NCBI RefSeq assembly: GCF_964204645.1
Contig: NC_134027.1
Coordinates: 3,256,485 to 3,320,484, forward strand
Length of the DNA: 64,000 nucleotides
From: Tubulanus polymorphus
Lineage: Eukaryota; Animalia; Nemertea
Reading direction: 5' to 3'
Shown here: positions 28,265-58,360 of the stretch, in pieces
Layout: each line of letters starts with the position of its first letter
Numbering within the stretch: position 1 is the stretch's first letter
The notes under the pieces: model-generated
The model's database searches: none
What the model was told of the DNA's origin: nothing
Seen by the model: only the letters and a program-made list of their open reading frames with translations
Position numbers and translations under genes: made by a program

Positions 28265-31200
28265 ATGCGGATAGTAAAGGACAGGTTCGTATCTTTCATT
28301 CCAACTGAATTGTTTATTTAGTTCGAAAAAAAGAGTGCTTTTTCATAATGATATGTTTCTGCAGAACATGGTGGCTGTATGATTCCTTTTCGACTCAATA
28401 AGTCGAAAATTAACTCAAATAAGTCGAAGTTTCGAGTTTATTCAAGTAGGATTTCGAGTTCAAAAGTCGAAATTTCAACTTAAAATTTCGAAAAACCGCA
28501 ATGCTCTTCTCTACAAATGGATCTATTGAAAAGGTGAATTTTCATGGTTGTTTAAAAAAAAAAAAATTTCGCAAATTTTCATTATTCTTTTCAGCAGGGC
28601 GTTGGTCATTTTTATTGTGTTACTTGTGCACACCACAAGCGCTATTTCATCACCGGTATGTCATACCGACACACTATGCACTACTTCATATGGATATGCT
28701 GAAAATAGCAGAAACATAATCAACCAGCCTTTCAGAAGTCTTGGTTTATATGGTCGGTGGGGCTACGCACAATGTCTATCTGCAAGGGGCGTTTATTACT
28801 TGAAACTTCTTTCAAATACCAGAGAACGAGGTAAAAGGACTCCAGTGTACGTTGCCGATATAACAGTCACATATTCTTGTGTGAATGAAGAATGCACGAT
28901 TGGTGTTAAGTACCAGATGAGGGATACATGTGCAGTTGGAGGTAAATCTGCCACACTTCATTATGCCAACGTCAAAATCAGTGCTAAATTCGATATGTTA
29001 ACATTTCATCACCCCGATGTAGCGTATGAATACATGTATTGGGCAAAAACAGTGTCTAGTTATGGATTTGATCCCATTAAGTTAAAATGTCGAGGAATGG
29101 GCTGCGAAAAACTGGTAAACCTTGGTAAGGCAGGGAAAAAACAACCGAACGTCTGTATAGTGGTAGAGGGATTAGTGTGTGGATTTTGCCATCCTGAAAG
29201 ATGCGATGCTAAATCAACCACAATAAAAACCACAACGACGAAGCTTACAACGTCAAAGAAACCAGAAACTACTACCGTAACGACGGAATCCAAAACTACA
29301 TCTCTAGAAACCACAGCTGCTGCTTTCACAGAGGCTACTACAAAACAGGCTAGTTTGAAATCTACTGCAGGAGGAACCCCATCAGCTGCTGGCACTGAGG
29401 TCACTACACAGGCGGCTGGATCAGCATCTACTGCAGGAGGAACCACATCAGTTGCTGGCACTGAATCCACGACACAGGCGGCTGGATCAGCATCTACAGC
29501 AGGAGGAACCCCATCAGCTGCTGGCACTGAATCCACGACACAGGCCGCTGGATCAGCATCTACTGCAGGAGGAACCCCTTCAGCTGCTGGCACTGAGGCC
29601 ACTACACAACCCACTGGAACAGCATCTACTGCAGGAGGAAACCCTTCAGCTGCTGGCACTGAATCCACTACACAACCCACTGGATCAGCATCTACTGCAG
29701 GAGGAACCCCATCAGCTGCTGGCACTGAAGCCACTACACAAGTGACTGGATCAGCATCAACAGCAGGAGGAACCCCATCAGTTTCTGGCACTGAATCCAC
29801 TACAAAAGCGACTGTATCAGCATCTACTGCAGGAGGAACCCCATCAGTTTCTGGCACTGAATCCACGACACAGGCCGCTGGATCAGTATCTACTACAGGA
29901 GGAACCCCGTCAGTTGCTGGCACTGCATCCACGACACAGGCGGCTGGATCAGCATCTACAGCAGGAGGAACCCCATCAGTTTCTGGCACTGAATCCACGA
30001 CACAGGCGGCTGGATCAGCATCTACAGCAGGAGGAACCCCATCAGTTTCTGGCACTGAATCCACTACACAGGCCGCTGGATCAGCATCTACCGCAGGAGG
30101 AACCCCATCAGTTGCTGGCACTGAATCCACGACACAGGCCGCTGGATCAGCATCTACTGCAGGAGGAACCCCATCAGCTTCTGGCACTGAAGCCACTACA
30201 CAAGTGACTGGATCAGTATCTACTGCAGGAGGAACCCCATCAGCTGCAGGCGCTGAATCCACGACACAGGCCGCTGGATCAGCATCTACTACAGGAGGAA
30301 CCCCATCAGTTGCTGGCACTGAATCCACGACACAGGCCGCTGGATCAGCATCTACTGCAGGAGGAACCCCATCAGCTTCTGGCACTGAAGCCACTACACA
30401 AGTGACTGGATCAGTATCTACAGCAGGAGGAACCCCATCAGTTTCTGGCACTGAATCCACGACACAGGCGGCTGGATCAGCATCTACTGCTGGAGGAACC
30501 CCATCAGCTTCTGGCACTGAATCCACTACAAAAGCGACTGTATCAGCATCTACTGCAGGAGGAACCCCATCGGTTTCTGGCACTGAATCCACGACACAGG
30601 CGGCTGGATTAGCATCTACAGCAGGAGGAACCCCATCAGTTTCTGGCACTGAATCCACGACACAGGCGGCTGGATCAGCATCTACTGCAGGAGGAACCCC
30701 ATCAGCTTCTGGAACTGAATCCACTACAAAAGCGACTGTATCAGCATCTACTGCAGGAGGAACCCCATCGGTTTCTGGCACTGAATCCACTACAAAAGCG
30801 ACTGGATCAGCATCTACTGCTGGAGGAACCCCATCAGTTTCTGGCACTGAATCCACGACACAGGCGGCAGGATCAGCATCTACTGCTGGAGGAACCCCAT
30901 CAGTTTCTGGCACTGAATCCACGACACAGGCGGCTGGATCAGCATCTACAGCAGGAGGAACCCCATCAGTTTCTGGCACTGAATCCACGACACAGGCGGC
31001 AGGATCAGCATCTACAGCAGGAGGAACCCCATCAGTTTCTGGCACTGAATCCACGACACAGGCGGCAGGATCAGCATCTACTGCAGGAGGAACCCCATCA
31101 GTTTCTGGCACTGAATCCACTACACGGGCGGCTGGATCAGTATCTACTGCAGGAGGGACCCCTTCAGCTGCTGGCACTGAAGCCACTACACAAGTGACTG

Positions 31201-34200
31201 GATCAGTATCTACTGCAGGAGGAACTCCATCAGCTGCAGGCACTGAATCCACTACACAGGCCGCTCGATCAGCATTTACTGCAGGAGGAACCCCATCAGC
31301 TGCTGGCACTGAATCCACGACAAAGGCCGCTGGATCGGCATCTACTACAGGAGGAACCCCATCAGCTGCTGGCACTGAATCCACTACACAGGCCGCTGGA
31401 TCAGCATCTACCGCAGGAGGAACCCCGTCAGTTGCGGGCACTGAATCCACGACACAGGCGGCTGGATCGGCATCTACTACAGGAGGAACCCCATCAGCTG
31501 CTGGCACTGAATCCACTACACAGGCTGCTGGATCAGCATCTACTGCAGGAGGAACCCCATCAGTTGCTGGCACTGAATCCACTACACAGGCCGCTCGATC
31601 AGCATCTACTGCAGGAGGAACCCCATCAGCTGCTGGCACTGAATCCACGACAAAGGCCGCTGGATCGGCATCTACTACAGGAGGAACCCCATCAGCTGCT
31701 GGCACTGAATCCACTACACAGGCCGCTGGATCAGTATCTACTGCAGGAGGAACCCCATCAGCTGCAGGCGCTGAATCCACGACACAGGCCGCTGGATCAG
31801 CATCTACTACAGGAGGAACCCCATCAGCTGCTGGCACTGAATCCACTACACAGGCTGCTGGATCAGCATCTACTGCAGGAGGAACCCCATCAGTTGCTGG
31901 CACTGAATCCACGACACAGGTGGCTGGATCAGTATCTACTGCAGGAGGAACCCCATCAGCTTCTGGCACCGAAGCCACTACACAAGTGACTGGATCAGTA
32001 TCTACTACAGGAGGAACCCCATCAGCTGCAGGCACTGAATCCACGACACAGGCCGCTGGATCAGCATCTACTGCAGGAGGAACCCCATCGGCTGCTGGCA
32101 CTGTATCCACTACAAAAGCGACTGGATCAGTATCCACTGCAGGAGGAACCCCATCAGCTGCAGGCACTGAATCCACGACACAGGCCGCTGGATCAGCATC
32201 TACTGCAGGAGGAACCCCATCAGTTGCTGGCACTGAATCCACGACACAGGCGGCTGGATCAGTATCTACAGCAGGAGGAACCCCATCATTTGCTGGCACT
32301 GAATCCACGACACAGGCGGCTGGATCAGCATCTACTGCAGGAGGGACCCCATCAGCTGCTGGCACTGAATCCACGACACAAGCGGCTGGATCAGCATCTA
32401 CAGCAGGAGGAACCCCATCAGTTTCTGGCACTGAATCCACGACACAGATGGCTGGATCAGCATCTACTGCAGGAGGGACCCCATCAGCTGCTGGCACTGA
32501 AACCACTACACAAGTGACTGGATCAGCATCTACTGCAGGAGGAACCCCATCAGTTTCTGGCACTGAATCCACGACACAGGCGGCTGGATCAGCATCTACT
32601 GCTGGAGGAACCCCATCAGTTTCTGGCACTGAATCCACGACACAGGCGGCTGGATCAGCATCTACTGCAGGAGGAACCCCATCAGTTTCTGGCACTGAAT
32701 CCACGACACAGGCGGCTGGATCAGCATCTACTGCTGGAGGAACCCCATCAGTTTCTGGCACTGAATCCACGACACAGATGGCTGGATCAGCATCTACTGC
32801 AGGAGGGACCCCATCAGCTGCTGGCACTGAAACCACTACACAAGTGACTGGATCAGCATCTACTGCAGGAGGAACCCCATCAGTTTCTGGCACTGAATCC
32901 ACGACACAGGCGGCTGGATCAGCATCTACTGCTGGAGGAACCCCATCAGTTTCTGGCACTGAATCCACGACACAGGCGGCTGGATCAGCATCTACTGCTG
33001 GAGTAACCCCATCAGTTTCTGGCACTGAATCCACTACACAGGCGGCTGGATCAGCATCTACTGCAGGAGGAACCCCATCAGTTTCTGGCACTGAATCCAC
33101 GACACAGGCGGCTGGATCAGCATCTACTGCTGGAGGAACCCCATCAGTTTCTGGCACTGAATCCACGACACAGGCGGCTGGATCAGCATCTACTGCTGGA
33201 GTAACCCCATCAGTTTCTGGCACTGAATCCACTACACAGGCGGCTGGATCAGCATCTACAGCAGGAGGAACCCCATCAGTTTCTGGCACTGAATCCACGA
33301 CACAGGCGGCTGGATCAGCATCTACTGCTGGAGTAACCCCATCAGTTTCTGGCACTGAATCCACGACACAGGCGGCTGGATCAGCATCTACTGCTGGAGG
33401 AACCCCATCAGTTTCTGGCACTGAATCCACGACACAGGCGGCTGGATCAGCATCTACTGCTGGAGGAACCCCATCAGTTTCTGGTACTGAATCCACGACA
33501 CAGGCGGCTGGATCAGCATCTACTGCAGGAGGAACCCCATCAGTTTCTGGCACTGAATCCACTACAAAAGCGACTGGATCAGCATCTACTGCAGGAGGAA
33601 CCCCATCAGTTTCTGGCACTGAATCCACGACACAGGCGGCTGGATCAGCATCTACTGCTGGAGTAACCCCATCAGTTTCTGGCACTGAATCCACTACACA
33701 GGCCGCTGGATCAGCATCTACAGCAGGAGGGACCCCATCAGTTTCTGGCACTGAATCCACGACAGAGGCTGCTGGATCAGTATCTACTACAGGAGGAACC
33801 CCGTCAGTTGCTGGCACTGCATCCACGACACAGGCGGCTGGAACAGCATCAACTGCTGGAGGAACCCCATCAGTTTCTGGCACTGAATCCACTACACAGG
33901 CCGCTGGATCAGCATCTACAGCAGGAGGAACCCCATCAGTTTCTGGCACTGAAGCCACTACACAAGTGACTGGATCAGTATCTACTGCAGGAGGAACCCC
34001 ATCAGCTGCAGGCACTGAATCCACGACACAGGCTGCTGGATCAGCATCTACTGCAGGAGGAACCCCATCAGCTGCTGGCACTGAATCCACTACAAAAGCG
34101 ACTGGATCAGTATCCACTGCAGGAGGAACCCCATCAGCTGCAGGCACTGAATCCACGACACAGGCCGCTGGATCAGCATCTACTGCCGGAGGAACCCCAT

Positions 34201-37200
34201 CAGTTGCTGGCACTGAATCCACGACACAGGCGGCTGGATCAGTATCTACTGCAGGAGGAACCCCATCAGTTGCTGGCACTGAATCCACGACACAGGCGAC
34301 TGGATCAGCATCTACTGCTGGAGGGACCCCATCAGTTTCTGGCACTGAATCCACGACACAGGCGGCTGGATCAGCATCTACAGCAGGAGGAACCCCATCA
34401 GTTTCTGGCACTGAATCCACTACAAAAGCGACTGTATCAGCATCTACTGCAGGAGGAACCCCATCAGTTTCTGGCACTGAATCCACGACACAGGCGGCTG
34501 GATCGGCATCTACAGCAGGAGGAACCCCATCAGTTTCTGGCACTGAATCCACGACACAGGCGGCTGGATCAGTATCTACTGCAGGAGGAACCCCATCAGT
34601 TTCTGGCACTGAATCCACGACACAGGCGGCTGGATCGGCATCTACAGCAGGAGGAACCCCGTCAGTTGCTGGCACTGCATCCACGACACAGGCGGCTGGA
34701 TCAGCATCAACTGCTGGAGGAACCCCATCAGTTTCTGGCACTGAATCCACTACACAGGCCGCTGGATCAGCATCTACAGCAGGAGGAACCCCATCAGTTT
34801 CTGGCACTGAATCCACGACACAGATGGCTGGATCAGCATCTACTGCAGGAGGGACCCCATCAGCTGCTGGCACTGAAACCACTACACAAGTGACTGGATC
34901 AGTATCTACTGCAGGAGGAACCCCATCAGCTGCAGGCACTGAATCCACGACACAGGCCGCTGGATCAGCATCTACTGCAGGAGGAACCCCATCAGCTGCT
35001 GGCACTGAATCCACGACAAAGGCCGCTGGATCAGCATCTACTACAGGAGGAACCCCATCAGCTGCTGGCACTGAATCCACTACACAGGCCGCTGGATCAG
35101 CATCTACAGCAGGAGGAACCCCATCAGTTTCTGGCACTGAAGCCACTACACAAGTGACTGGATCAGTATCTACTGCAGGAGGAACCCCATCAGCTGCAGG
35201 CACTGAATCCACGACACAGGCTGCTGGATCAGCATCTACTGCAGGAGGAACCCCATCAGCTGCTGGCACTGAATCCACTACAAAAGCGACTGGATCAGTA
35301 TCCACTGCAGGAGGAACCCCATCAGCTGCAGGCACTGAATCCACGACACAGGCCGCTGGATCAGCATCTACTGCCGGAGGAACCCCATCAGTTGCTGGCA
35401 CTGAATCCACGACACAGGCGGCTGGATCAGTATCTACTGCAGGAGGAACCCCATCAGTTGCTGGCACTGAATCCACGACACAGGCGACTGGATCAGCATC
35501 TACTGCTGGAGGGACACCATCAGTTTCTGGCACTGAATCCACGACACAGGCGGCTGGATCAGCATCTACAGCAGGAGGAACCCCATCAGTTTCTGGCACT
35601 GAATCCACTACAAAAGCGACTGTATCAGCATCTACTGCAGGAGGAACCCCATCAGTTTCTGGCACTGAATCCACGACACAGGCGGCTGGATCAGCATCTA
35701 CTGCAGGAGGAACCCCATCAGTTTCTGGCACTGAATCCACGACACAGGCTGCTGGATCGGCATCTACAGCAGGAGGAACCCCGTCAGTTGCTGGCACTGC
35801 ATCCACGACACAGGCGGCTGGATCAGCATCAACTGCTGGAGGAACCCCATCAGTTTCTGGCACTGAATCCACTACACAGGCCGCTGGATCAGCATCTACA
35901 GCAGGAGGAACCCCATCAGTTTCTGGCACTGAATCCACGACACAGATGGCTGGATCAGCATCTACTGCAGGAGGGACCCCATCAGCTGCTGGCACTGAAA
36001 CCACTACACAAGCGACTGGATCAGTATCTACTGCAGGAGGAACCCCATCAGCTGCAGGCACTGAATCCACGACACAGGCCGCTGGATCAGCATCTACTGC
36101 AGGAGGAACCCCATCAGCTGCTGGCACTGAATCCACTACACAGGCCGCTGGATCAGCATCTACCGCAGGAGGAACCCCATCAGTTGCGGGCACTGAATCC
36201 ACGACACAGGCGGCTGGATCAGCCTCTACTGCAGGAGGAACCCCATCAGCTTCTGGCACTGAAGCCACTACACAAGTGACTGGATCAGTATCTACTGCAG
36301 GAGGAACCCCATCAGCTGCAAGCGCTGAATCCACGACACAGGCCGCTGGATCAGCATCTACTACAGGAGGAACCCCATCAGCTGCTGGCACTGAATCCAC
36401 TACACAGGCTGCTGGATCAGCATCTACTGCAGGAGGAACCCCATCAGTTGCTGGCACTGAATCCACGACACAGGTGGCTGGATCAGCATCTACTGCAGGA
36501 GGAACCCCATCAGCTTCTGGCACTGAAGCCACTACACAAGTGACTGGATCAGTATCTACTGCAGGAGGAACCCCATCAGTTTCTGGCACTGAAGCCACTA
36601 CACAAGTGACTGGATCAGTATCTACTGCAGGAGGAACCCCATCAGCTGCAGGCACTGAATCCACGACACAGGCTGCTGGATCAGCATCTACTGCAGGAGG
36701 AACCCCATCAGCTGCTGGCACTGAATCCACTACAAAAGCGACTGGATCAGTATCCACTGCAGGAGGAACCCCATCAGCTGCAGGCACTGAATCCACGACA
36801 CAGGCCGCTGGATCAGCATCTACTGCCGGAGGAACCCCATCAGTTGCTGGCACTGAATCCACGACACAGGCGGCTGGATCAGTATCTACTGCAGGAGGAA
36901 CCCCATCAGTTGCTGGCACTGAATCCACGACACAGGCGGCTGGATCAGCATCTACTGCAGGAGGGACCCCTTCAGCTGCTGGCACTGAGTCCACTACAAA
37001 AGCGACTGGATCAGCATCTACAGCAGGAGGAACCCCGTCAGTTTCTGGCACTGAATCCACGACACAGGCGGCTGGATCAGCATCTACTGCTGGAGTAACC
37101 CCATCAGTTTCTGGCACTGAATCCACGACACAGGCGGCTGCATCAGCATCTACTGCAGGAGGGACCCCATCAGTTTCTGGCACTGAATCCACGACACAGG

Positions 37201-40200
37201 CGGCTGGATCAGCATCTACAGCAGGAGGAACCCCATCAGTTTCTGGCACTGAATCCACTACAAAAGCGACTGTATCAGCATCTACTGCAGGAGGAACCCC
37301 ATCAGTTTCTGGCACTGAATCCACGACACAGGCGGCTGGATCGGCATCTACAGCAGGAGGAACCCCATCAGTTTCTGGCACTGAATCCACGACACAGGCG
37401 GCTGGATCAGCATCTACTGCAGGAGGAACCCCATCAGTTTCTGGCACTGAATCCACGACAGAGGCTGCTGGATCAGTATCTACTACAGGAGGAACCCCGT
37501 CAGTTGCTGGCACTGCATCCACGACACAGGCGGCTGGATCAGCATCAACTGCTGGAGGAACCCCATCAGTTTCTGGCACTGAATCCACTAAAAAAGCGAC
37601 TGGATCAGCATCTACTGCAGGAGGAACCCCATCAGTTTCTGGCACTGAATCCACTACACGGGCGGCTGGATCAGTATCTACTGCAGGAGGGACCCCTTCA
37701 GCTGCTGGCACTGAAGCCACTACACAAGTGACTGGATCAGCATCTACTGCAGGAGGAACCCCATCAGCTGCTGGCACTGAGGCCACTACACAAGTGACTG
37801 GATCAGTATCTACTGCAGGAGGAACCCCATCAGCTGCAGGCACTGAATCCACTACACAGGCCGCTGGATCAGCATATACTGCAGGAGGAACCCCATCAGC
37901 TGCTGGCACTGAATCCACGACAAAGGCCGCTGGATCAGCATCTACTACAGGAGGAACCCCATCAGCTGCTGGCACTGAATCCACTACACAGGCCGCTGGA
38001 TCAGTATCTACTGCAGGAGGAACCCCATCAGTTTCTGGCACTGAAACCACTACACAAGTGACTGGATCAGTATCTACTGCAGGAGGAACCCCATCAGCTG
38101 CTGGCACTGAATCCACTACAAAAGCGACTGGATCAGTATCCACTGCAGGAGGAACCCCATCAGCTGCAGGCACTGAATCCACGACACAGGCGGCTGGATC
38201 AGTATCTACTGCAGGAGGAACCCCATCAGCTGCAGGCACTGAATCCACGACACAGGCGACTGGATCAGCATCTACTGCAGGAGGAACCCCATCAGCTGCT
38301 GGCACTGCATCCACGACACAGGCGGCTGGATCAGCATCTACTGCAGGAGGGACCCCTTCAGCTGCTGGCACTGAAGCCACTACACAAGTGACTGGATCAG
38401 CATCTACAGCAGGAGGAACCCCATCAGTTTCTGGCACTGAATCCACGACACAGGCGGCTGGATCAGCATCTACTGCAGGAGGAACCCCGTCAGTTGCTGG
38501 CACTGCATCCACGACACAGGCGGCTGGATCAGCATCTACAGCAGGAGGAACCCCATCAGTTTCTGGCACTGAATCCACGACACAGGCGGCTGGATCAGCA
38601 TCTACTGCAGGAGGAACCCCATCAGCTGCTGGCACTGAATCCACTACAAAAGCGACTGGATCAGCATCTACTGCAGGAGGAACCCCTTCAGCTGCTGGCA
38701 CTGAAGCCACTACACAAGTGACTGGATCAGCATCTACTGCAGGAGGGACCCCTTCAGCTGCTGGCACTGAATCCACGACACAAGTGACTGTATCAGCATC
38801 TACTGCAGGAGGAACCCCATCGGTTTCTGGCACTGAATCCACTACACAGGCGGCTGGATCAGCATCTACTGCTGGAGGAACCCCATCAGTTTTTGGCACT
38901 GAATCCACGACACAGGCGGCTGGATCAGCATCTACTGCTGGAGGAACCCCATCAGTTTCTGGCACTGAATCCACGACACAGGCGGCTGGATCAGCATCTA
39001 CTGCTGGAGGAACCCCATCAGTTTTTGGCACTGAATCCACGACACAGGCGGCAGGATCAGCATCTACTGCAGGAGGAACCCCATCAGTTTCTGGCACTGA
39101 ATCCACGACACAGGCGGCTGGATCAGCATCTACTGCTGGAGGAACCCCATCAGCTTCTGGCACTGAAGCCACTACACAAGTGACTGGATCAGCATCTACT
39201 GCAGGAGGAACCCCATCAGCTGCAGGCACTGAATCCACTACACAGGCCGCTGGATCAGCATCTACTGCAGGAGGAACCCCATCAGCTGCTGGCACTGAAT
39301 CCACGACACAGGCCGCTGGATCAGCATCTACTGCAGGAGGAACCCCATCAGCTTCTGGCACTGAATCCACTACACAGGCCGCTGGATCAGCATCAACTGC
39401 AGGAGGAACCCCATCAGCTTCTGGCACTGAATCCACTACACAGGCCGCTGGATCAGCATCTACAGCAGGAGGAACCCCATCAGTTTCTGGCACTGAATCC
39501 ACGACACAGGCGGCTGGATCAGCATCTACAGCAGGAGGAACCCCATCAGTTTCTGGCACTGAATCCACGACACAGGCGGCTGGATCAGCATCTACTGCAG
39601 GAGGGACCCCATCAGCTTCTGGCACTGAAGCCACTACACAAGTGACTGGATCAGCATCTACTGCAGGAGGAACCCCATCAGCTGCAGGCACTGAATCCAC
39701 TACACAGGCCGCTGGATCAGCATCTACTGCAGGAGGAACCCCATCAGCTGCTGGCACTGAATCCACGACACAGGCCGCTGGATCAGCATCTACTGCAGGA
39801 GGAACCCCATCAGCTGCAGGCACTGAATCCACGACACAAGTGACTGGATCAGCATCTACTGCAGGAGGAACCCCATCAGCTGCTGGCACTGAATCCACGA
39901 CACAGGCCGCTGGATCAGCATCTACTGCAGGAGGAACCCCATCAGCTTCTGGCACTGAATCCACTACACAGGCCGCTAGATCAGCATCTACAGCAGGAGG
40001 AACCCCATCAGTTTCTGGCACTGAATCCACGACACAGGCGGCAGGATCAGCATCTACTGCAGGAGGAACCCCATCAGTTTCTGGCACTGAATCCACTACA
40101 AAAGCGACTAGATCAGCATCTACAGCAGGAGGAACCCCATCAGTTTCTGGCACTGAATCCACTACAAAAGCGACTGGATCAGCATCTACTGCAGGAGGAA

Positions 40201-42194
40201 CCCCATCAGTTTCTGGCACTGAATCCACTACAAAAGCGACTGGATCAGCATCTACTGCTGGAGGAACCCCATCAGTTTCTGGCACTGAATCCACGACACA
40301 GGCGGCAGGATCAGCATCTACTGCAGGAGGAACCCCATCAGTTTCTGGCACTGAATCCACTACAAAAGCGACTAGATCAGCATCTACAGCAGGAGGAACC
40401 CCATCAGTTTCTGGCACTGAATCCACTACAAAAGCGACTGGATCAGCATCTACTGCAGGAGGAACCCCATCAGTTTCTGGCACTGAATCCACTACACAGG
40501 CGGCTGGATCAGTATCTACTAGAGGAGGGACTCCTTCAGCTGCTGGCACTGAAGCCACTACACAAGTGACTGGATCAGCATCTACTGCAGGAGGAACCCC
40601 ATCAGCTGCTGGCACTGAGGCCACTACACAGGCGGCTGGATCAGCATCTACTGCCGGAGGAACCCCATCAGCTGCAGGCACTGAGGCCACTACACAGGCC
40701 GCTGGATCAGTATCTACTGCAGGAGGAACCCCATCAGATGCTGGCACTGAATCCACTACACAAGCGACTGGATCAGTATCCACTGCAGGAGGAACCCCAT
40801 CAGCTGCTGGCACTGAGGCCACTACACAACCCACTGGATCAGCATCTACTGCAGGAGGAACCCCATCAGCTGCTGGCACTGAATCCACGACACAGGCCGC
40901 TGGATCAGCATCTACCGCAGGAGGAACCCCATCAGTTGCTGGCACTGAATCCACTACACAGGCCGCTGGATCAGTATCTACCGCAGGAGGAACCCCATCA
41001 GCTGCTGGCACTGAATCCACTACGCAAGCGACTGGATCAGTATCTAGTGCAGGAGGAACCCCATCAGCTGCTGGCACTGAATCCACTACACAGGCGACTG
41101 GATCAGTATCTACTGCAGGAGGAACCCCGTCAGCTGCTGGCACTGAAGCAACTACACAACCCACTGGATCAGCATCTACTGCAGGAGGAATTCCATCAGC
41201 TGCTGGCACTGAATCCACGACACAGACGACTGGATCAGTATCTACTGCAGGAGGAACCCCTTCAGCTGCTCGCACTGAATCCACGACACAGGCCGCTGGA
41301 TCAGCATCTACTGCAGGAGGAACCCCATCAGCTGCTGGCACTGAATCCACGACACAGGCGACTGGATCAGTATCTACTGCAGGAGGAACCCCTTCAGCTG
41401 CTCGCACTGAATCCACGACACAGGCCGCTGGATCAGCATCTACTGCAGGAGGAACCCCATCAGTTGCAGGCACTGAGGCCACTACACAGGCCGCTGGATC
41501 AGCATCTACTGCAGGAGGAACCCCATCAGCTGCTGGCACTGAGGCCACGACACAGGCCGCTGGATCAGCATCTACTGCTGGAGGAACCCCATCAGCTGCT
41601 GGCACTGAGGCCACTACACAGGCGGCTGGATCAGTATCTACTGTAGGAGGAATCCCATCAACTACCGAAACAACGACTACTCAAGCGATAACTTGTAACC
41701 CTGTTTGGTCACCAATCAGTTCCCGTATGAGTCCATACAAATTCAATATTGGTGGTGATAGCACGAAGGAAGGTTGGGCCCAGTGTATATCTTCTCCGGG
41801 GAAATATATATCTTTCCTGTATATGAAAGGTTTGACAAAGAAAAAAGTCGGTATCGCAAGTGTAACTTATACGTGTGATACATTCCCATGTAGTATACAC
41901 GTAACACTTGACCTAAAACCATGCAAAGCTGGTAGCACCACGTCGAAAATCCTCTCGAAGTCCGCTCTGCGTCTAACGCTTGGCAAATCGGCACTCTCCA
42001 GCTCGGGACCAGAAGATTACGAATATAAATTGGAATATCCCTCATACAGTGATTTTTCTAATTTCGGAACGATCTCTAAGGCATGCAAAGACGCAAGTGG
42101 AAAATGTGATTTCACATCTATATCAGAAGTCGATGGAAAGCCTCCACTTGTGTGTGTTGCTGTTTATGCAGAGATTTGCGGTTTATGTAATTAG
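28265..42194 (+). CDS. Giant secreted mucin-like protein (~4550 aa): signal peptide, Cys-rich domain, ~186 x 22-aa repeat, homologous Cys-rich domain
   Basis: 13.6-kb uninterrupted ORF (28548-42194). The listed TTG start lies in intron-like sequence ahead of an acceptor ttcttttcag at 28594. An upstream exon ATGCGGATAGTAAAGGACAG|gttcgt (28265-28284, phase 2) splices in frame to give MRIVKDSRALVIFIVLLVHTTSA, a typical signal peptide. Confidence 0.9.
28388..28490. repeat. Short degenerate TTCGA/AGTCGAA minisatellite and hairpin in an intron of the giant gene
   Basis: Repeated aataagtcgaa and tttcgagtt motifs at ~22-bp spacing, partly self-complementary. Confidence 0.5.
29361..41660 (+). repeat. 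Coding tandem array, 66-bp unit (GSASTAGGTPS[V/A][S/A]GTESTTQAA), about 186 copies
   Basis: Unit ggatcagcatctactgcaggaggaaccccatcagttgctggcactgaatccacgacacaggcggct is directly visible. Length ~12.3 kb / 66 gives about 186. No frameshifts. Confidence 0.98.
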
Positions 42195-50016: not shown

Positions 50017-50242
50017 TAAGGCTAAACAAAAATGATACCTTGTTTCTCCGCAGCGGCCGGGTCATTTTTGTAAAATATGATAAAATTTATAAACAGTTCA
50101 TTTCTATAGCGGCCGGGTCTGTTATGGTAAAATTGATCACGATTTCAAAAAAAGTAACGTATAGGGTAGATAGGCGGCCGGCCGGGTCAACATTTAAGCT
50201 CAGCAGAGCGGAGAAACAAGGTATCAATTTTTTTTAGCCTAA
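50017..50242. mobile_element. MITE copy B, inverted relative to copy A
   Basis: Reverse complement of 42205-42421 with the same TIRs and TA flanks. Confidence 0.9.
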
Positions 50243-50626
50243 GACAACTGATTTACCTAATATAGAATTCTGTTGAATAATAGATACGAAGTTTCGTCAT
50301 AACTCAATATCAATGTTTGCTTTCATTTCCCGAGCCATGAAAGCCAACCACACTTCACGGTTCTAAAGACACGCTGCTGGACACTCGGACAACTTAACTC
50401 TAACCAAAACTCAAAATGCTATCCAGCTCCCGGGCATCAGTGGGAATGTTGATGTCCATATTTTTGTATTTCAGAACTGCACCAAAACTTTGCTGTGGTA
50501 AGTAAATAATATTTTGATGAGCGGTCAGGTTTTAGAAATGCCTAACCTTTTAGATAATCTGCACGTTTTATTGTGGTTCCTTCTTGTGGGCAATCTATGA
50601 AGCCTATACTTTTATCTATTTGGCAG

Positions 50627-51279
50627 CGAGTTGTCTTAACGGGTATTATTGGACTGAAATACCCGGTCGTGGAATTGTTGGAAACAATGATAAAATTGTC
50701 AATTATGTAACATTGGCGGAATGTGAACATCTTTGCGAAATCGAAACCAGTTTTCGTTGTGCATCTATAGAAATTCAACCCACTAACCAAATTTGCGCAA
50801 TGACAAAAGAAACCCGATGGACAGTTCCGGCTTCTTATGGAATAGACCAAGAGCCGTGGATTTATGCAGAGATTAGATGTTCAGGTATTCAGCGAAAATA
50901 TGATCATTAGAAATACATATACTATGTATAATGGCACGATGTCTTATCTAGACGAGTAAAAAAAATTTGGGAATTATGTTTTGTCTTTTTAATTCTTTTA
51001 GATAAAAAACGCGTTACGAATCAATGGTATGAGACGATATCACCACAGGTCACACCCGGAAATAAACGATCTCTGATTTCCGTTAGCAAAACCGCATCGA
51101 CACCCGAGTGCGCATTGATGTGCTCTTCAAATGACGCGTGTATTCTTTTCGCTTTCAAAAAACAAACCCCTGAAAACAGCGGTGAATGTTTCTTATACAA
51201 TTCTCATCCTTCTTGTGATCAATGCGGTATTCCGACAACCGCCAGTGAGAACAAGGTTGTTTATTTGATCAGAAATTGA
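50627..51279 (+). CDS. Small protein with two PAN/apple domains; 5' end unresolved
   Basis: Exon to 50884 has TLAECEHLCEIETSFRCASIE...ICAMTKETR. Intron 50885-51001 (GT-AG, phase 1). Exon 51002-51279 has STPECALMCSSNDACILFAF...GECFLY and a stop. The CxxxC..C..C spacing is that of PAN domains. Confidence 0.8.
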
Positions 51280-51552
51280 TTGTCCAGTGCAGTCACCTGT
51301 GACAATTATCTAACCTCTCTTTATTCTTTATCGAGTTATCTATAAAAAAATGTGTATGGCCTACACTGTTCTAGATTTGTAATCGACGAGTAAATATTTG
51401 TTCTCTAGACATACTGAAATGCATAAGAAGTAATATATATGTTTGTAGACACGGTTCTAAATGAAAGAAGAATCATATGGAGTTTAGACGCGAAATATCG
51501 CTAAAAAGTTGAATAACTGTAGGTGTGAAAATACCGATCACTGGTGAAAATA

Positions 51553-51954
51553 ATGAAGAACGTTTATAAGTTTTGGGTGAAGCTTGCGGCCGTTATTGAT
51601 ATCGTGTTCACGATCCTTTTCTTTTGTCTCGGCGTCGCTGAAGAGGCTAAAAGCTGGACGACGTACCATCACTGTATGACCGCTTTTGTAGCAGCCGTGT
51701 TATACCAGGCGTTAACATTCAGTTTGATTTATGGACACCACGATTTGATTCTATCGTTGATTTTTGTGTTGATTCATTTTACCGGTTTGCTGTTAGCGAC
51801 TATCGCACTAGTACTGTGTTGTAACGACATGTCGATGAATCCAGTTTTCCAAAATATTTGGATAGCTGACGTCATACTGCTGATGGCGAATCTCGTTCTC
51901 GGAGGAATGACTGCTTTTAGCTGCGCTTTTCAATTATGTTTGAATATGTGTTGA
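51553..51954 (+). CDS. Small four-transmembrane protein (MARVEL-like topology), single coding exon
   Basis: 133-aa ORF from ATG 51553 with four ~20-aa hydrophobic stretches and short loops. Confidence 0.65.
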   Translation: MKNVYKFWVKLAAVIDIVFTILFFCLGVAEEAKSWTTYHHCMTAFVAAVLYQALTFSLIYGHHDLILSLIFVLIHFTGLLLATIALVLCCNDMSMNPVFQNIWIADVILLMANLVLGGMTAFSCAFQLCLNMC

Positions 51955-52410
51955 GGAGCACCAAATTTATCAATTGCTGATGGATTCGAGAAGCAAAAGA
52001 ATTGTACTAACGCTTTTACAACTTATATAGGCATATCATAAAAAAAACATGCCTTTATTGAACGTCGAACATTACACTTTTTATTTTCAATCATTTAGGC
52101 TAATAGTTGTACATATGTTGAATCGATTCACACCGAGCCCTCAGCTCTTGTAAATACGAAGGCATTTTATTTCATGAAAAAATTATCAGCCCGTACTTTG
52201 AATTGCTACTAATTTTCATAAAACAGCTGTCTTTTTATTTGAAATACAATCGCTATATTGTTTTTCGAGTTGATTAGCGTATATACGTCTTCGATGCGGT
52301 TTAATATTCAAATATCATGTTGCAATTTAGTTGCTACCAGTAAGGTTCATACATAGATATCCCAATTGGCTTACGTTCGTTTCACGGTGCGGTTGGTAAA
52401 CGTTAACAAA

Positions 52411-53022
52411 ATGGATAAATTCGTATTCATAATGCTAATATTGGTAACTGGAGCGAGTAGAAATAATGCTACAACCACGGTAAGATTTTACGACTAAGCG
52501 AAACAAATTTCCACTTCCTTTGATCAGTAAACTGAAAGAACTATATGGTTATTCGATTTCTCTATAATAGTCTATAAACGTGCGCAACTTTTTTACCCAT
52601 TTCTTCAGGCTCAGATCCCTCACTGGAGTACAGTCACTATCCATGGTAATATCACCATAGTACAACCTACTCCTGATGACACTAGCAAGGACGAGGTACT
52701 TCCTGCCGACTCAATGATGGTTATCAAACTTCAAGATATGTCCATCGCTGATATAGGACCCGTAGTATTCCAGCGATACCAAGTTGACGTGAGCTCGCAT
52801 AAGATATCCGTCCCGTTGCCTTATTCGGTGCAGGTCAACAACTTTCCCCACGGACGACCGATGCTATTCGTGTCCTGTGTTATAAATGTTGGCTGGCATC
52901 CCGATCGATTGAAAGGAGAATGGATACGTTCCGGAGATTATTACTCCACATCTTTTCACCAAGTCGATTCTTCACCTAACAGTGAAACGATAACAACAGA
53001 TATCACAGTTCGTAAGATTTAA
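52411..53022 (+). CDS. Secreted protein with YbaY/YscW (pilotin-like) domain, 2 exons
   Basis: Exon 52411-52479 (MDKFVFIMLILVTGASRNNATTT, signal peptide), donor GTAAGA, acceptor ttcttcag at 52608, exon 52609-53022 in frame. The motif IHGNI...LPADSMMVIKLQDMSIAD...PLPYSV...VSCVI resembles bacterial YbaY (VSGTV...LPPDAVLTVTLxDxSLADAP...PFSF). Confidence 0.75.
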
Positions 53023-53148
53023 ATTGATATTTACTGAGACGTTTGTTCATAAATACAGAAGATAATAAATTCATGGATTATCATACCTGTATATATGCGT
53101 GTAATTTCTTGTAGTTGATTCGTAGATGATTTTAAGGTTCTGAGAATT

Positions 53149-56100
53149 TCATGATTTTATCGCCTTAATTATCGGAATATAAAACTGAGCCATTAGTGCA
53201 TCATCTTTAAGACACCGTTGGTAGTCCAAACAGCGCACCGTATCTAACAAACCAGTTGGAGGTAAACTCGAGTCTATGATTATTGGGATTACTCGTTTGC
53301 CAGTATTAAAAGCTACGCGCAACTCTGCCATGCATCTGGCGTCGTTGTAGTAATTTCGACTTAACACTGCTATCATTGTTTTAGACATGATAATGTCCTC
53401 CCTCGTTATATTAATAATTGAACTGCGGGAGTTCGCGCTATATCCTGGGTCGGGGTTTGTTGAGTAATTCATCCTGGTGGCTACGCTCGGTTTTTCACAA
53501 AGCAGGTCACAAAACGGTTGTTCTGCTGTTTCTAATAAAGCCACTAGTTCACATTGAACCCAAGCATCATCTTCTTCTGAACTCGAGATGAAAGTCTCAA
53601 ACTCAACGTACGCTTTTGTGTCGAGAGGGGAAACATTTTCCTGAAAATAAACGACTTTCCTTTTTATGTTTCACGATATCATTGGTTGGTTTTGAAGATT
53701 GAGTCAAAACTTACCTGGTCAATTGAATTTTGTTGTATATTAGGAGGAATAGCAATTGTACGTATCACACCGTTACATATGAATTTCAATTCCCCGCCTG
53801 TAAAGTTCTGTTCTAATGAACCGCCGTGTGTGGAAAGAACTGAAAGGTGCAACTTGTTATTATAGCTACAATGACACGTAATTCCGCACGAGTATTTCAA
53901 AAAAGGAAATTGTTTTAGCCGAATCAGATTTATAATTTCATCAACCCATCGCAAAGTTCGAAAAATATCTTCTTTATTCATTTTATCCTCGCCAATCGTT
54001 GTCTTTATTAAGTTTTGTCCAATCGATGCTTTCATTAATTCTAGTTTACAAAATACGCCAGGACCAAACTTAAATATACCACAATCCTTGAAGAGGCGAG
54101 GAGTAAAAGTTCCAATTGACATTTGGTAACATTTAGCCAAAAGGGTCAAAAACATAGCTTCCGGATAGAAATAACCAAAATCGAAATAAAAGTCGAGCGA
54201 AAGTTTGCATACCGGTAACACGGACTCGTTCACGCTTAACGGCAATCTATAAGGTACAATGAACATCTCTTCCGATTCGGTAGAGAACGGTATGATCAAA
54301 TTCACTGCTCGAAGGATGTCTAAAATACAATCTAAATCACCGACTGTATTTTGTAGCATAAAGCGAAGTAAAGCGGGCGATGTGACACCTGTACGACACA
54401 GCGAATTCCAAGCCGATTCTAGGTGTTTAGGAACGACTGTCAGATAGTTTCCGGCTAGTGATTCTACGCAATCGGCGAGAATCTGCGGTTCGAGTAAAAC
54501 GTAACGAAATAATCGAGGATCATTCGATTTGAAGAATATTTCTCCGTAATCATTAAAAAACTCCAGCATCCTTAGGAAATGAGCTTCTTTCTCAAATCCG
54601 ATGTCTTCTTTCATCTTCGACCACAAATCGAAATAACTAACGATACAATCACGGCGATAATTCCGTCTGATTGTTTTAACATAATCTAAAAATCCTAACC
54701 ACTTAACTGGTATCAAACGATTTGCGTATTCGGCTTCACGTGTAGTCTTTAGGATCATTTCTTTTAATTCATCGATATCCGTATCCCATCCATTGCATTC
54801 TCGATATCTATTTTCTAACGTGAACAGTGGACATTCATTTCGACTCGAGTTTAGAGCGAGACGTCCACCGAATACTGGATACAGTTCTCTCTTCATCATA
54901 GAAGCAATTCCATTAGTTTGATTGTTGTCTAACGATGCCCTATGTGTACCTATTAGAAATATCAACGAATCTCGATGGTGAGCATGGGCAAAAACAGAAT
55001 TCAACCAATAGAGGATTCGTTCCATTTGCCAATCTGGGCGTTCGTAAGCATCTTCTAGCGAGAAAACGACCAAATATATGGAATGCTTTGCCATAAATAT
55101 ATGGTGTCCCACATGGTACAATTCATTTCCCGAACAGTCCAACAGACAAAGTCTTTGTGGCCAGGTTGTTGGGTTGCTGCATTTTATATCCCAAATCAGC
55201 TGGGCGGGAACCGAATCATTTCGGATAAGGTAATGCCTGCGTATTTCCGATGCTATTGCTATCGTGCATCCTAATATAGCTAAAAACAAGTACCAGCCAT
55301 CGGTGAACAATGCAGTCCAAGAAAACCTCCATCCCATATATATTCCACCTAACATGCCTACCTCCCATCCATAAACGATCACCAATAACCTGCTGTGTCC
55401 GAATAGTCGTCTTAGTCTGTGGCCAAAAGTTAAACCCCTTACAAACGAAAATCCGTAGATAACTCCAGTGCATGTCGCCAGTAGTAATTCCGATTCGATT
55501 TTCATTGAAACCATCATTACTAACATTGTTAATGCCGAAGTAAGCGAACAGACACAAATCAATATTCGTCTTTTCATGTTATGGAATTTGCTCTGAATGA
55601 GAACGCCGAGGACAAAGCTCAAAAACAGGAAAATTATTTGCAGGATATTCATGATTTCGTTTTCGCCACTTTTTAGGTTGAAAGAATGAGTTTGAGCGAG
55701 TTGTGTAACGATTCCCTTGTAAGCTGGAGGAATTAGCGTACATAACGCTACGGCCATACCAGCTCTACCCCCAGTTCCCAGTGATGCGCTTAGCAATGCA
55801 AAAACTCCCGACGAGATGAAAGTGCGGGATAAGATGGCCCATAGCGCATCATACTTTTCCATCGTCCGAATTCCTGAACACATTTCTGGTAGCATTATCG
55901 TACTTATATAGTTTAGAATAACTAGGATGATCGCCAGTCCGTTGCCTTGGTTGAAACCCTCGATGTCATTTTTCCACAATATGGAAACTGGAACGACAGC
56001 TAACAGAAGTAACGGTGTAAAACCTAAACGTATTCCGTGTAAACATAACAGGATGAACGTTATTATACCGGTAATGAAAAAGGTCACCATCAATATAACT

Positions 56101-56504
56101 CCATTGAGTAAGAGTATGTATATCGGAGTTGCGATATGTGTCAAGAGATTACTCGTTCCTAGTATAGTGAAATACGAAGCAGCTTGTTGCACTTCAGTGT
56201 AGCGACTGTTGTCAATCTTTTTGTACGAACCATCAACAAAATATTGCTCGATTCCAAATGTGCTCTCTCCGTCTCTTTCTGAATGGGGAATTCCCATTAG
56301 TAATTTTCGCGAACTTGTTTTTCCGACTCCCGAATCTCCGAGAAACATAACTTTCCTGTAAGCACAAGTGATATTCCCAATTTTCATCGCATTTTCATAT
56401 TTCTCTTTAACTTCAGCGCCGTAGATACTCATTTCTTCTTGCGATAAGTTCAAGTTTTGCAGCGTTTTTGCCCTAATAGCCGCCATTCTTTCTGAACCTG
56501 ACAT
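53149..56504 (-). CDS. Roco-type ROC-COR GTPase with multi-pass transmembrane insert and C-terminal TIR domain (~1093 aa, 2 coding exons)
   Basis: Exon 56504-53715 has P-loop KVMFLGDSGVGKTS, switch I ESTFGIE, ~10 hydrophobic segments, G3 LLDCSGNELYHVGHHIFM..SIYLVVF, G4-like FLIGTH, and COR (IPVKWL...LEFFNDYGEIFF...VLLEPQ...IVP). Intron 53714-53641 (CAG|GTAAGT...tttcag, phase 0). Exon 53640-53149 is a TIR domain: FETFISSSEEDDAWV...IAVLSRNYYNDARCMAEL...RVIPII. Confidence 0.88.
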
Positions 56505-56789
56505 GATCGTGTCGCCTTGTGAGAATATGATCCTCAGTTTAATCTGCAGATGATGAAACAACTTCCGCCTGGAAAGAGTATGCAGTATGCAGTATGCACA
56601 TGTATTTATACTCTTTCCATATATAATCACATAAATTGATAACAGCGGACAGATTCTATGACTAATCGGTGTCCTAAAAACCCGGCATCTGCGTCGATAA
56701 CCAATGGTAGCCGTCTAGAGAGTGTTTGGGGGAAACCGTGCGTTTTCTCTTTTCAGTAGTACAGCTCGTATAGCTGATCGGTGTACAGC

Positions 56790-57557
56790 ATGCGCAGCAA
56801 CATGTTTCATGTACAATTCCTCGTCTTGTCATTCTTAGTCGTTACGGTATCGAGCCGTCAACCAAGAAGAGCGGGTGATCAGCCACCAGAAGGATACTGT
56901 CAGGATTTCAAATGGGGCGGAAAGATACGAGTCCATTGGTACGCGTGCTGTAATAATTGTAGAAGCGGTAACAAGACGGGTGTACCATGCGACGGGAAAA
57001 CTTATCATTCTGCATCTGCGTGTAAGTATGATTAGAACTGGTGCCCACTGGCGCCGATCACAGTTTTTATGACAATAATCCTCTCGTTGATTTTAGATAC
57101 ATACTGTGATGGTTGTGGAGTTGATTCCAAAGCAGGAGATGGAGCCAAACGCATGGCCGACAAGTTCGCATGTGGAGGTTGCAGGGGTCAAGACCAAATA
57201 GCCAAAGAGTGTGAAACTTGGTGGCGCAAAATCCCTGGCTTCTGTTGGTCATTTATCAAGTGTTTCGAAAAGAAATGCAAAATGGCGCACGGAAAAGGTG
57301 GACTTACGCCAAAATCATGTTACAACGGGATATGTGAGGCGGGTGAAACACCCGAGAACTGCCCCATGGATTGTTGTTACAAAAATAATCCTAAATGTGA
57401 TTGGACACTAACAAATGCTGGTAATAAGACATGTATTCCATTATGTTGTAGTCAGCCAGGATGCTGCAATGCGGCCGTGTCCATTGTCCAAGGCAATATC
57501 AGAATGTTGAGCCTGATTTTGTTTTCTTTGTTAGTTTCCCTTAAAATCTGTGAGTGA
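56790..57557 (+). CDS. Secreted or GPI-anchored cysteine-rich protein, 2 exons
   Basis: Exon 56790-57021 (signal peptide MFHVQFLVLSFLVVTVSS; WYACCNNC), intron 57022-57096 (GTAAGT...ttttag), exon 57097-57557 (YCDGCG...FACGGC...PGFCWSFIKCF...CYNGICEAGETPENCPMDCC). It ends in a hydrophobic tail MLSLILFSLLVSL preceded by NAA. Confidence 0.85.
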
Positions 57558-57816
57558 ATGAATATCTTTGTGTGGCCATTAAGAAAATACACGAATGTAT
57601 ATTTAAATTGTGGACGCGGTATTCGATTGAGGACCTATATTTACAATTCGCAAAAGTAGCATGATATTCTTCAATGGAATTCGGCGGAACATCGAAATGA
57701 CCCGTATTGCCAAAACGAAGGAAGACAATTTCCAATAAGCGAATAATCTAAAGCAGGCGCAGTTAATGCAGCGCCAAGATATGGCGAAATAAGGAAAGGG
57801 TCAGATAAGCAGATAA

Positions 57817-58060
57817 GTGTCCTAAAAACCCGGTATGTCAATGGCAATAGATAAGTCGATAATCAATGAGAGGTTTAGTGTTTAGGGGTAACTGTGTAAC
57901 TGTTACATTCAGGAGCAACATGTTTCATGTCGTTCTGGATCGTTGCGGTATCCAGTAGTCAACCAAGAGCGGATGATCAGCCACCAGAAGGATACTGTCA
58001 GGAATTCAATAGGGCGGAAAGATTAGTGTCCATTGGTTTTCGTGCTGTACCAGTTGTAGA
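57817..58060 (+). pseudogene. Truncated, frameshifted duplicate of the upstream region and exon 1 of the 56790-57557 gene
   Basis: Shares GTGTCCTAAAAACCCGG, GCAACATGTTTCATGT, GATCAGCCACCAGAAGGATACTGTCAGGA and GTCCATTGGT..CGTGCTGTA with 56669-56962, but carries indels and has no second exon. Confidence 0.85.
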
Positions 58061-58360
58061 AACGTTTTAGAGTGCATGGCCCAACGCATTCAAAATGTAC
58101 TCCGCTTTTACTAATAGAATTGTCTTACATTTGTTTTCGCAATAAGAATTCCTTTGAAGCACGATACACTGCTGTGGATAGTGAATTAGTCGTCCATATA
58201 CGCTTTGCTTACGAATCAACGAACATAAATTAAGTCAACATGACCGATATATAATATAATTTTAATATATTTTAATATGTTTCTTTCTATTCACTTATAT
58301 ATATAACGAGTGTGCATTGTTTAGTTTATCGGGATTTGAATCTTTTAAATGCTCTTGGTT

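Follow-up and report, generated by a model that had tools for sequence, protein, structure and literature searches.

A gene of the nemertean Tubulanus polymorphus was found to be a spliced animal Roco gene encoding a predicted ten-helix membrane domain inside its GTPase domain and a TIR domain at its C-terminus, and its product is likely a one-piece membrane switch in immunity or cell death. The gene lies in the 64,000-nt stretch of DNA analysed here (contig NC_134027.1, positions 3,256,485 to 3,320,484), termed the window, whose own numbering is used throughout. It is a Roco gene of a conserved and apparently undescribed type, and its architecture is new.

Gene structure, transcripts and neighbouring features

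The Roco gene lies on the minus strand, and the translation of its spliced coding sequence (56504-53715 joined to 53640-53149) is identical to the 1093-aa RefSeq protein XP_074645068.1 (P0004), labelled 'uncharacterized protein LOC141901616 isoform X1'. Coding exon 1 (53715..56504, minus strand, 930 codons) encodes a short N-terminus, the split ROC domain, the membrane bundle and the entire COR domain, and coding exon 2 (53149..53640, minus strand) encodes the TIR domain (163 codons, 53640-53152) and the stop. They are separated by a 74-nt phase-0 intron (53641..53714, minus strand) which reads GTAAGT...TTTTCAG. One 5287-nt contig of sequencing run X2, from one sample of one study, joins the COR exon directly to the TIR exon and also omits a 3'-UTR intron of 111 nt (52976..53086, minus strand). 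This run, whose library type is not on record, was taken as RNA because its contig omits GT-AG introns. The contigs of runs X1 and X3 retain both introns and are unspliced. The sequence-only reading had merged two separately listed ORFs into one gene across a clean 74-nt phase-0 intron, which is borne out by the spliced contig and the RefSeq model; together they rule out two separate genes. A chance hydrophobic stretch or an assembly chimera was likewise ruled out by a continuous contig of run X1 and by a T. polymorphus paralog that is 41% identical over the full length. Relative to the window, run X2 differs in two adjacent bases at 54670-54671, which change Ile612 to Arg in COR-A, and its other two coding differences are silent.

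RefSeq also lists an isoform X2 of 772 aa without COR-B and TIR, because a 373-nt GT-AG intron inside exon 1 (53840..54212, minus strand) is removed. Its removal was not seen in the contigs of the sequencing runs compared with the window, and this isoform is possibly a decoy or a decay-bound form. Nonsense-mediated decay follows a rule of 50-55 nt from the stop codon to a downstream intron. The 3'-UTR intron of the Roco gene begins 62 nt past the stop codon, farther than this distance, which could hold expression down.

Several other features were observed around the gene. Downstream, at 51430-53085, the spliced Roco contig runs over two plus-strand ORFs, a hydrophobic one without Pfam match (51529-51954) and one with a weak YscW match (52531-53022), which suggests that overlapping convergent transcripts were merged in the assembly. 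An adjoining gene carries two PAN/apple-domain exons (50554-51279, plus strand), and a contig of run X2 omits 50497-50625. At 50019-50240, an element of ~220 nt is bounded by terminal inverted repeats of 33 nt; contig depth over it is very high in 4/4 runs, and it is probably a MITE. Head-to-head with the Roco gene, a plus-strand gene (56876-58003; ORF 57036-57557) encodes a small protein that is rich in cysteine, hydrophobic at its ends and without Pfam match; its 75-nt intron (57022-57096) is spliced in run X2, and it is flanked by two diverged direct repeats (~56669-56967 and 57817-58064). Farther away, one open frame of 4554 codons (28530-42194, plus strand) encodes mucin-like Thr/Ser/Ala/Gly repeats between two cysteine-containing ends without Pfam match.

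The split G-domain and its ten-helix insert

The ROC domain is encoded in two halves on the minus strand. The N-terminal half (56220..56417; residues 30-95) comprises helix alpha0, beta1, the P-loop, switch I and beta2, with the G1 motif GDSGVGKTS at residues 56-64 (56339-56313) and the G2 residue T82 in switch I (56261-56259), which is invariant in 40/40 aligned relatives. The C-terminal half (54717..55154; residues 451-596) comprises beta3, G3, G4 and a G5 region reading ENR, with the G3 motif DCSG at residues 456-459 (55139-55128). The motif positions and the structural model described below agree with the earlier placement of G1 and G2 before, and of G3 and G4 after, the membrane insert, with one correction: G3 is intact, but G4 is degenerate, reading THRA (54947-54936) without the guanine-specifying Asp. 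G1-G3 are conserved family-wide and intact in the T. polymorphus protein. The G4 Asp is kept in 26/40 aligned family members and absent from the T. polymorphus copy and its paralog (it is lost in P0004, P0005 and P0006), and G4-G5 motifs are described as variable among Rocos (PMC6337361).

Profile searches with Pfam detected Roc (E 6e-8, above its cut-off) and TIR_2 (E 1e-7) as expected from the sequence, but COR-A at E 0.004 falls under the Pfam curated cut-off. The COR domain (COR-A and COR-B; 53736..54716, minus strand; residues 597-923) was instead recognized by structure, as model residues 599-923 align with the C. tepidum COR domain (3dpt_B) with Z 15.5 and rmsd 3.7 over 273 residues. 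The AlphaFold2 model built with a 93-sequence alignment reached a pLDDT of 83.5 and a pTM of 0.77 (single-sequence folding gave a pLDDT of 37.5), and COR-B is present in it. Further structural alignment of the split ROC (model residues 45-596) with Rab3C aligned 171/172 residues (Z 18.8, rmsd 2.9), that of ROC-COR with LRRK2 aligned 466 residues (Z 23.7, rmsd 3.9), and Foldseek matched the model to LRRK2 with E 6e-15. The two ROC halves are shown in silico to close into one normal Rab/LRRK2-like G-domain, the refolding that the sequence-only reading had proposed to look for with AlphaFold.

The membrane domain lies between the two halves (55221..56123, minus strand; residues 128-428). In the model, the insert exits after beta2 (residues 85-91) and re-enters at beta3 (residues 451-457), that is, in the beta2-beta3 turn, so that the modelled membrane domain is placed in the hairpin linking switch I and switch II. 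Hydropathy analysis of the single protein gave 11 segments within residues 114-417 on the GES scale and seven on the Kyte-Doolittle scale; family-averaged hydropathy peaks and the AlphaFold2 model, from which the helix bounds were set, both gave ten, in keeping with the roughly ten hydrophobic helices noticed at first between G2 and G3. TM5 and TM9 are short in the model, each ending in extended segments. Lys/Arg density is greater in alternate (inner) loops in 41/43 sequences, with loop bounds set by hand from the family-averaged hydropathy profile. Because of this bias, both ends of the bundle are predicted to be cytosolic, which together with the even helix number agrees with the anticipated cytosolic location of both ROC halves. 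The outer loops are short, averaging 4-22 aa.

The mean identity of the insert is 15% versus 25-40% for the core and is lowest (8%) in the outer loop 261-280. Its conserved elements are glycines, a GxGxRxG..CxxxPP motif, W392 and an intramembrane Glu near residue 420, with few conserved polar residues. Searches of Pfam, NCBIfam and PDB sequences assigned the insert to no membrane family, NCBIfam giving a single weak NqrD match (1/52), and the ESM Atlas yielded no usable match for two inserts. In a fold search with the whole model, the top ranks held only Roco and small-GTPase folds and no membrane fold; GTPases filled these lists, which leaves room for a membrane fold in the bundle. Only ~30 residues precede ROC and no LRR, ankyrin or kinase match was found, consistent with the initial impression that the protein has no N-terminal repeat sensor.

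Relatives, origin of the insert and C-terminal domains

Word-based homology searches returned only the gene itself and one paralog, and the family was recovered by a full phmmer scan, which gave 819 proteins at E <= 0.001. The search of invertebrate proteins for the same architecture that the sequence-only reading had called for was rewarding: among the best 150 of the 819 proteins, 69 have both ROC halves separated by an insert with at least four predicted helices (median length 354 aa). In another 46 the insert at this site is soluble (median 130 aa), one protein is partial and 34 are without a detectable N-half, nine of these with helices. The ROC N-half is preceded by 60 or fewer residues in 63/69 membrane-insert proteins versus 20/46 soluble-insert proteins, counts in which many entries are possibly truncated gene calls. 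The hosts among the 20 matches looked up include the sponges Corticium and Oscarella, the coral Montipora, the echinoderms Asterias, Amphiura and Anneissia, the hemichordates Ptychodera and Glandiceps and the lancelet Branchiostoma; no vertebrate, insect or nematode was among the named matches. Two copies were found in T. polymorphus by protein searches, which is not an immune-type expansion. In addition, a coral-type insert lies inside one long ORF in 6/18 metagenome loci. Bacterial Roco ORFs from a genome scan have 11-29 aa and no helices at the insert site, and no prokaryotic source of the insert was found among the matches listed (0/4 loci with a helix insert).

In a tree of the ROC-COR core (92 rows, with 21/39 distant soluble rows left out), the membrane forms fell into a bilaterian-type group of 44 rows (SH-aLRT 99), a coral-type group of 21 rows (SH-aLRT 100) and a sponge group of two rows (SH-aLRT 99), and all membrane forms stood on one side of a branch with SH-aLRT 88. 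Within the bilaterian-type group, which joins the nemertean with deuterostomes, the inserts are homologous at hhalign probabilities of 97-99% (reversed controls <6%), whereas no homology of the bilaterian-type insert to the coral-type, sponge or P0150 inserts was detected (hhalign probability <3%). Either a single origin with strong divergence or repeated insertion at this site is possible. In the Roco P0150, the insert has 502 aa and ten helices but no sequence relationship to the inserts of any other group, and it possibly arose by an independent insertion. Another unusual protein is P0022, with 1362 aa, two tandem ROC-COR units and a Death domain.

The TIR domain of the nemertean protein (~residues 943-1093) contains a CxxE motif with E1036, and CxxE is retained in 5/5 aligned related TIRs. 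Its top PDB sequence matches are TLR6, Toll-receptor-related 2, TLR10 and MyD88, and TLR6 and TLR10 carry the same Glu; the TIR part of the AlphaFold2 model is poor (pLDDT about 40-73). Enzymatic (NADase) TIRs depend on a catalytic Glu in helix alphaC, whereas TLR TIRs are scaffolds not known to be enzymes. Because its top PDB matches are TLR/MyD88 proteins and the Glu is shared with TLR6 and TLR10, the nemertean TIR is likely, on sequence grounds, of the scaffold type and nearer to TLR/MyD88 than to enzyme TIRs, although it may have NADase activity.

The C-termini of the relatives are interchangeable. A Pfam scan was run on 48 proteins, one of which (P0009) lacks the insert and was excluded from the count; the 47 membrane-type proteins comprise 14 with Death, five with TIR_2, one with caspase and 27 with no effector family. 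When the tails of 77 proteins (counting isoforms) were clustered, 17 fell in a Death-dominated cluster and five and four in two TIR groups; the remainder are three sponge Death tails, three singletons, 38 tails shorter than 70 residues and seven proteins without a COR-B end. In Branchiostoma, P0012, which ends in Death, and P0019, which ends in caspase, are sister rows (SH-aLRT 99), and the SHG and QACRG motifs of the P0019 caspase look intact. Many of the short tails may come from gene calls cut at an intron, because the effector in the nemertean gene occupies its own exon. On the other hand, the Montipora RefSeq model stops 49 aa past COR-B, and a similarly short final ORF (6163-6504) is present at the metagenome locus L005; these two sequences suggest that coral-type members consist of ROC, membrane domain and COR and are truly without an effector. 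The proposed one-piece architecture of membrane domain, GTPase and TIR stands for the nemertean protein, but TIR is not the sole output of the family, since relatives carry Death, caspase or none.

Known systems, a possible mechanism and its meaning

The protein shares the ROC-COR tandem and fold with LRRK1/2, DAPK1, MFHAS1 and C. tepidum Roco. In contrast to these, its ROC contains a ten-helix domain, and LRR, ankyrin, MBT and Neuralized modules are all missing from its N-terminus. It fits none of the three Roco topology groups given in PMC6337361 (LRR-Roc-COR, with kinase, and DAPK1-type), and the word 'transmembrane' is absent from the accessible text of that review. Fusions of ROC-COR to TIR have been described for Aplysia and Trichoplax (PMC9334734, PMC4104024), and the C-terminal TIR or Death domain is a feature in common with invertebrate ROC-COR-TIR and ROC-COR-Death proteins, among them those of Aplysia (PMC9334734). 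For brown algae, long ROC inserts and C-terminal membrane-like domains are mentioned (PMC11378527, PMC4104024). In line with the earlier supposition that the architecture was uncharacterised, full-text searches found no description of a polytopic domain inside ROC, though subscription journals, figures (including the domain-architecture figure of PMC11378527) and supplements could still show one.

A likeness to bacterial TM-NTPase-TIR defence architectures had also been suggested. The closest precedents for helices in a P-loop fold are the YobI/Tmn and KAP (Kidins220/PifA) ATPases (PMC13001434), which have P-loop NTPase-tied helices, inside the domain in YobI/Tmn, and defence roles. They belong to an unrelated ATPase class with two to four helices and no COR, in contrast to the Ras-like GTPase fold and ten helices found here; membership in either family was rejected, since both sequence and structure identify a Ras-like Roc. 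The precedent for effector swapping is provided by the prokaryotic AP-GTPase (Roco) systems (Kaur et al. 2021, PMC8195603), in which a constant ROC-COR core carries swappable effectors including TIR and caspase, a pattern in predicted counter-invader systems (section 15 of the same paper), and some members have TM helices. These systems differ from the nemertean protein in their N-terminal LRR sensors and in the placement of their TM helices in the effector slot that follows COR; the label 'AP-GTPase+TM' has 0 occurrences in the PMC8195603 files searched. Because those helices occupy the effector slot, the membrane domain of the nemertean protein may itself act as an effector.

Toll-like receptors and MyD88 offer another comparison, since a TLR is also a membrane protein with a cytosolic TIR. 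The nemertean protein differs in having no LRR ectodomain, ten helices rather than one and a GTPase between membrane and TIR; TLR identity was rejected by the missing LRR match, the short outer loops and a layout that is not single-helix. The Arf interswitch toggle (PMC6724607) is alike in placing an element between switch I and switch II as a possible coupling point between membrane and nucleotide. In Arf, however, the toggle combines a myristoylated amphipathic helix with a register shift, and the likeness of the nemertean protein is one of position only.

With about even confidence, we propose that the bundle replaces the LRR/ankyrin sensor, acts on the switch hairpin, sets the nucleotide and COR-dimer state and clusters the scaffold-type TIR. 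In the modelled anatomy, the ROC halves come together on the cytosolic side of the membrane, and the switch I-switch II hairpin carries the bundle. Because the protein has no N-terminal repeat sensor and the outer loops are short, the bundle would be the input, sensing a small ligand, lipid, membrane damage or a membrane protein rather than a large extracellular ligand. By analogy with the Arf interswitch, which couples membrane and nucleotide site (PMC6724607), and with the Roco cycle, in which CtRoco switch II passes the nucleotide state on to COR and the oligomer state (PMC6337361), a change in the bundle would shift the switch regions, then the nucleotide state and then the COR-dependent monomer-dimer balance. 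Dimerisation or clustering in the membrane would gather TIR domains and recruit MyD88-type adaptors, and in relatives the same proximity step would cluster Death domains or activate the fused caspase. The insert position alone is no proof of coupling, because the site also takes soluble inserts (46 of the best 150). Membrane domains generally diverge faster than enzymes, and for this reason the low identity of the insert need not mean a sensor. The apparently effector-less coral type, the missing G4 Asp in the nemertean copy and its paralog and the finding of only two copies in the species also count against a sensing bundle that drives the switch.

As the main alternative, the bundle could be the output, a GTP-gated pore, channel or transporter, with the TIR, Death or caspase domains docking it to upstream receptor complexes or acting as a second output, which we consider unlikely. 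Conserved glycines, shortened helices and an intramembrane Glu are the kind of features found in transporters, and the insert has conserved glycines, shortened TM5 and TM9 and the Glu near 420; moreover, coral-type members seem to be ROC, membrane domain and COR only. Tmn, an ATPase whose P-loop domain likewise contains helices, exports Mg2+ upon phage sensing (PMC13001434), and one PMC8195603 supplement places TM helices in the effector slot of prokaryotic Rocos, with 334 occurrences of 'COR+TM'. However, the insert matches no transporter or channel family in Pfam or PDB sequences and only weakly NqrD in NCBIfam, its low identity and few conserved polar residues fit a fixed substrate path poorly, and the caspase of P0019, with its intact-looking motifs, is more simply an output.

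Less probable again is a mere anchor or compartment address, in which case cytosolic partners, local concentration or nucleotide levels would activate the protein, much like LRRK2, which is activated through membrane recruitment (PMC6337361). The tolerance of the site for unrelated inserts fits this, as do the bilaterian, coral and sponge inserts, which are not alignable to each other, as expected if hydrophobicity alone counts; but from nemertean to deuterostomes the ten-helix insert keeps its length (median 354 aa), its order and its glycine motifs, which is more than anchoring would require. Finally, a family function outside immunity (development, trafficking or stress), or a nemertean copy serving as a nucleotide-relaxed scaffold, is improbable: known Rocos include non-immune proteins (PMC4104024), the G4 Asp is lost in P0004, P0005 and P0006 and few copies were found in T. 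polymorphus, but the recognized outputs are all TIR, Death or caspase, G1-G3 are intact and G4-G5 vary in Rocos anyway (PMC6337361).

Returning to a bundle that serves as input, we suggest tentatively, with somewhat less than even confidence, that these proteins are ancient animal immune or death receptors, from sponges to lancelets, in which a ten-helix module is wired into an LRRK2-like switch whose output can be exchanged between TIR, Death and caspase. They would be the counterpart of NLRs within the membrane, and may have arisen repeatedly at the same loop. Roco GTPases are regarded as soluble switches that visit membranes, and the input route to the LRRK2 ROC switch is still debated. The membrane-insert Rocos hard-wire into the switch hairpin a polytopic membrane domain that none of the libraries searched (Pfam, NCBIfam, PDB sequences) recognizes, and they have simple read-outs including caspase, so that the coupling from input to switch to dimer could be studied within one polypeptide. 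They point to a class of membrane receptors for immunity or death that has been overlooked, may occur throughout animals and differs from both TLRs and NLRs.
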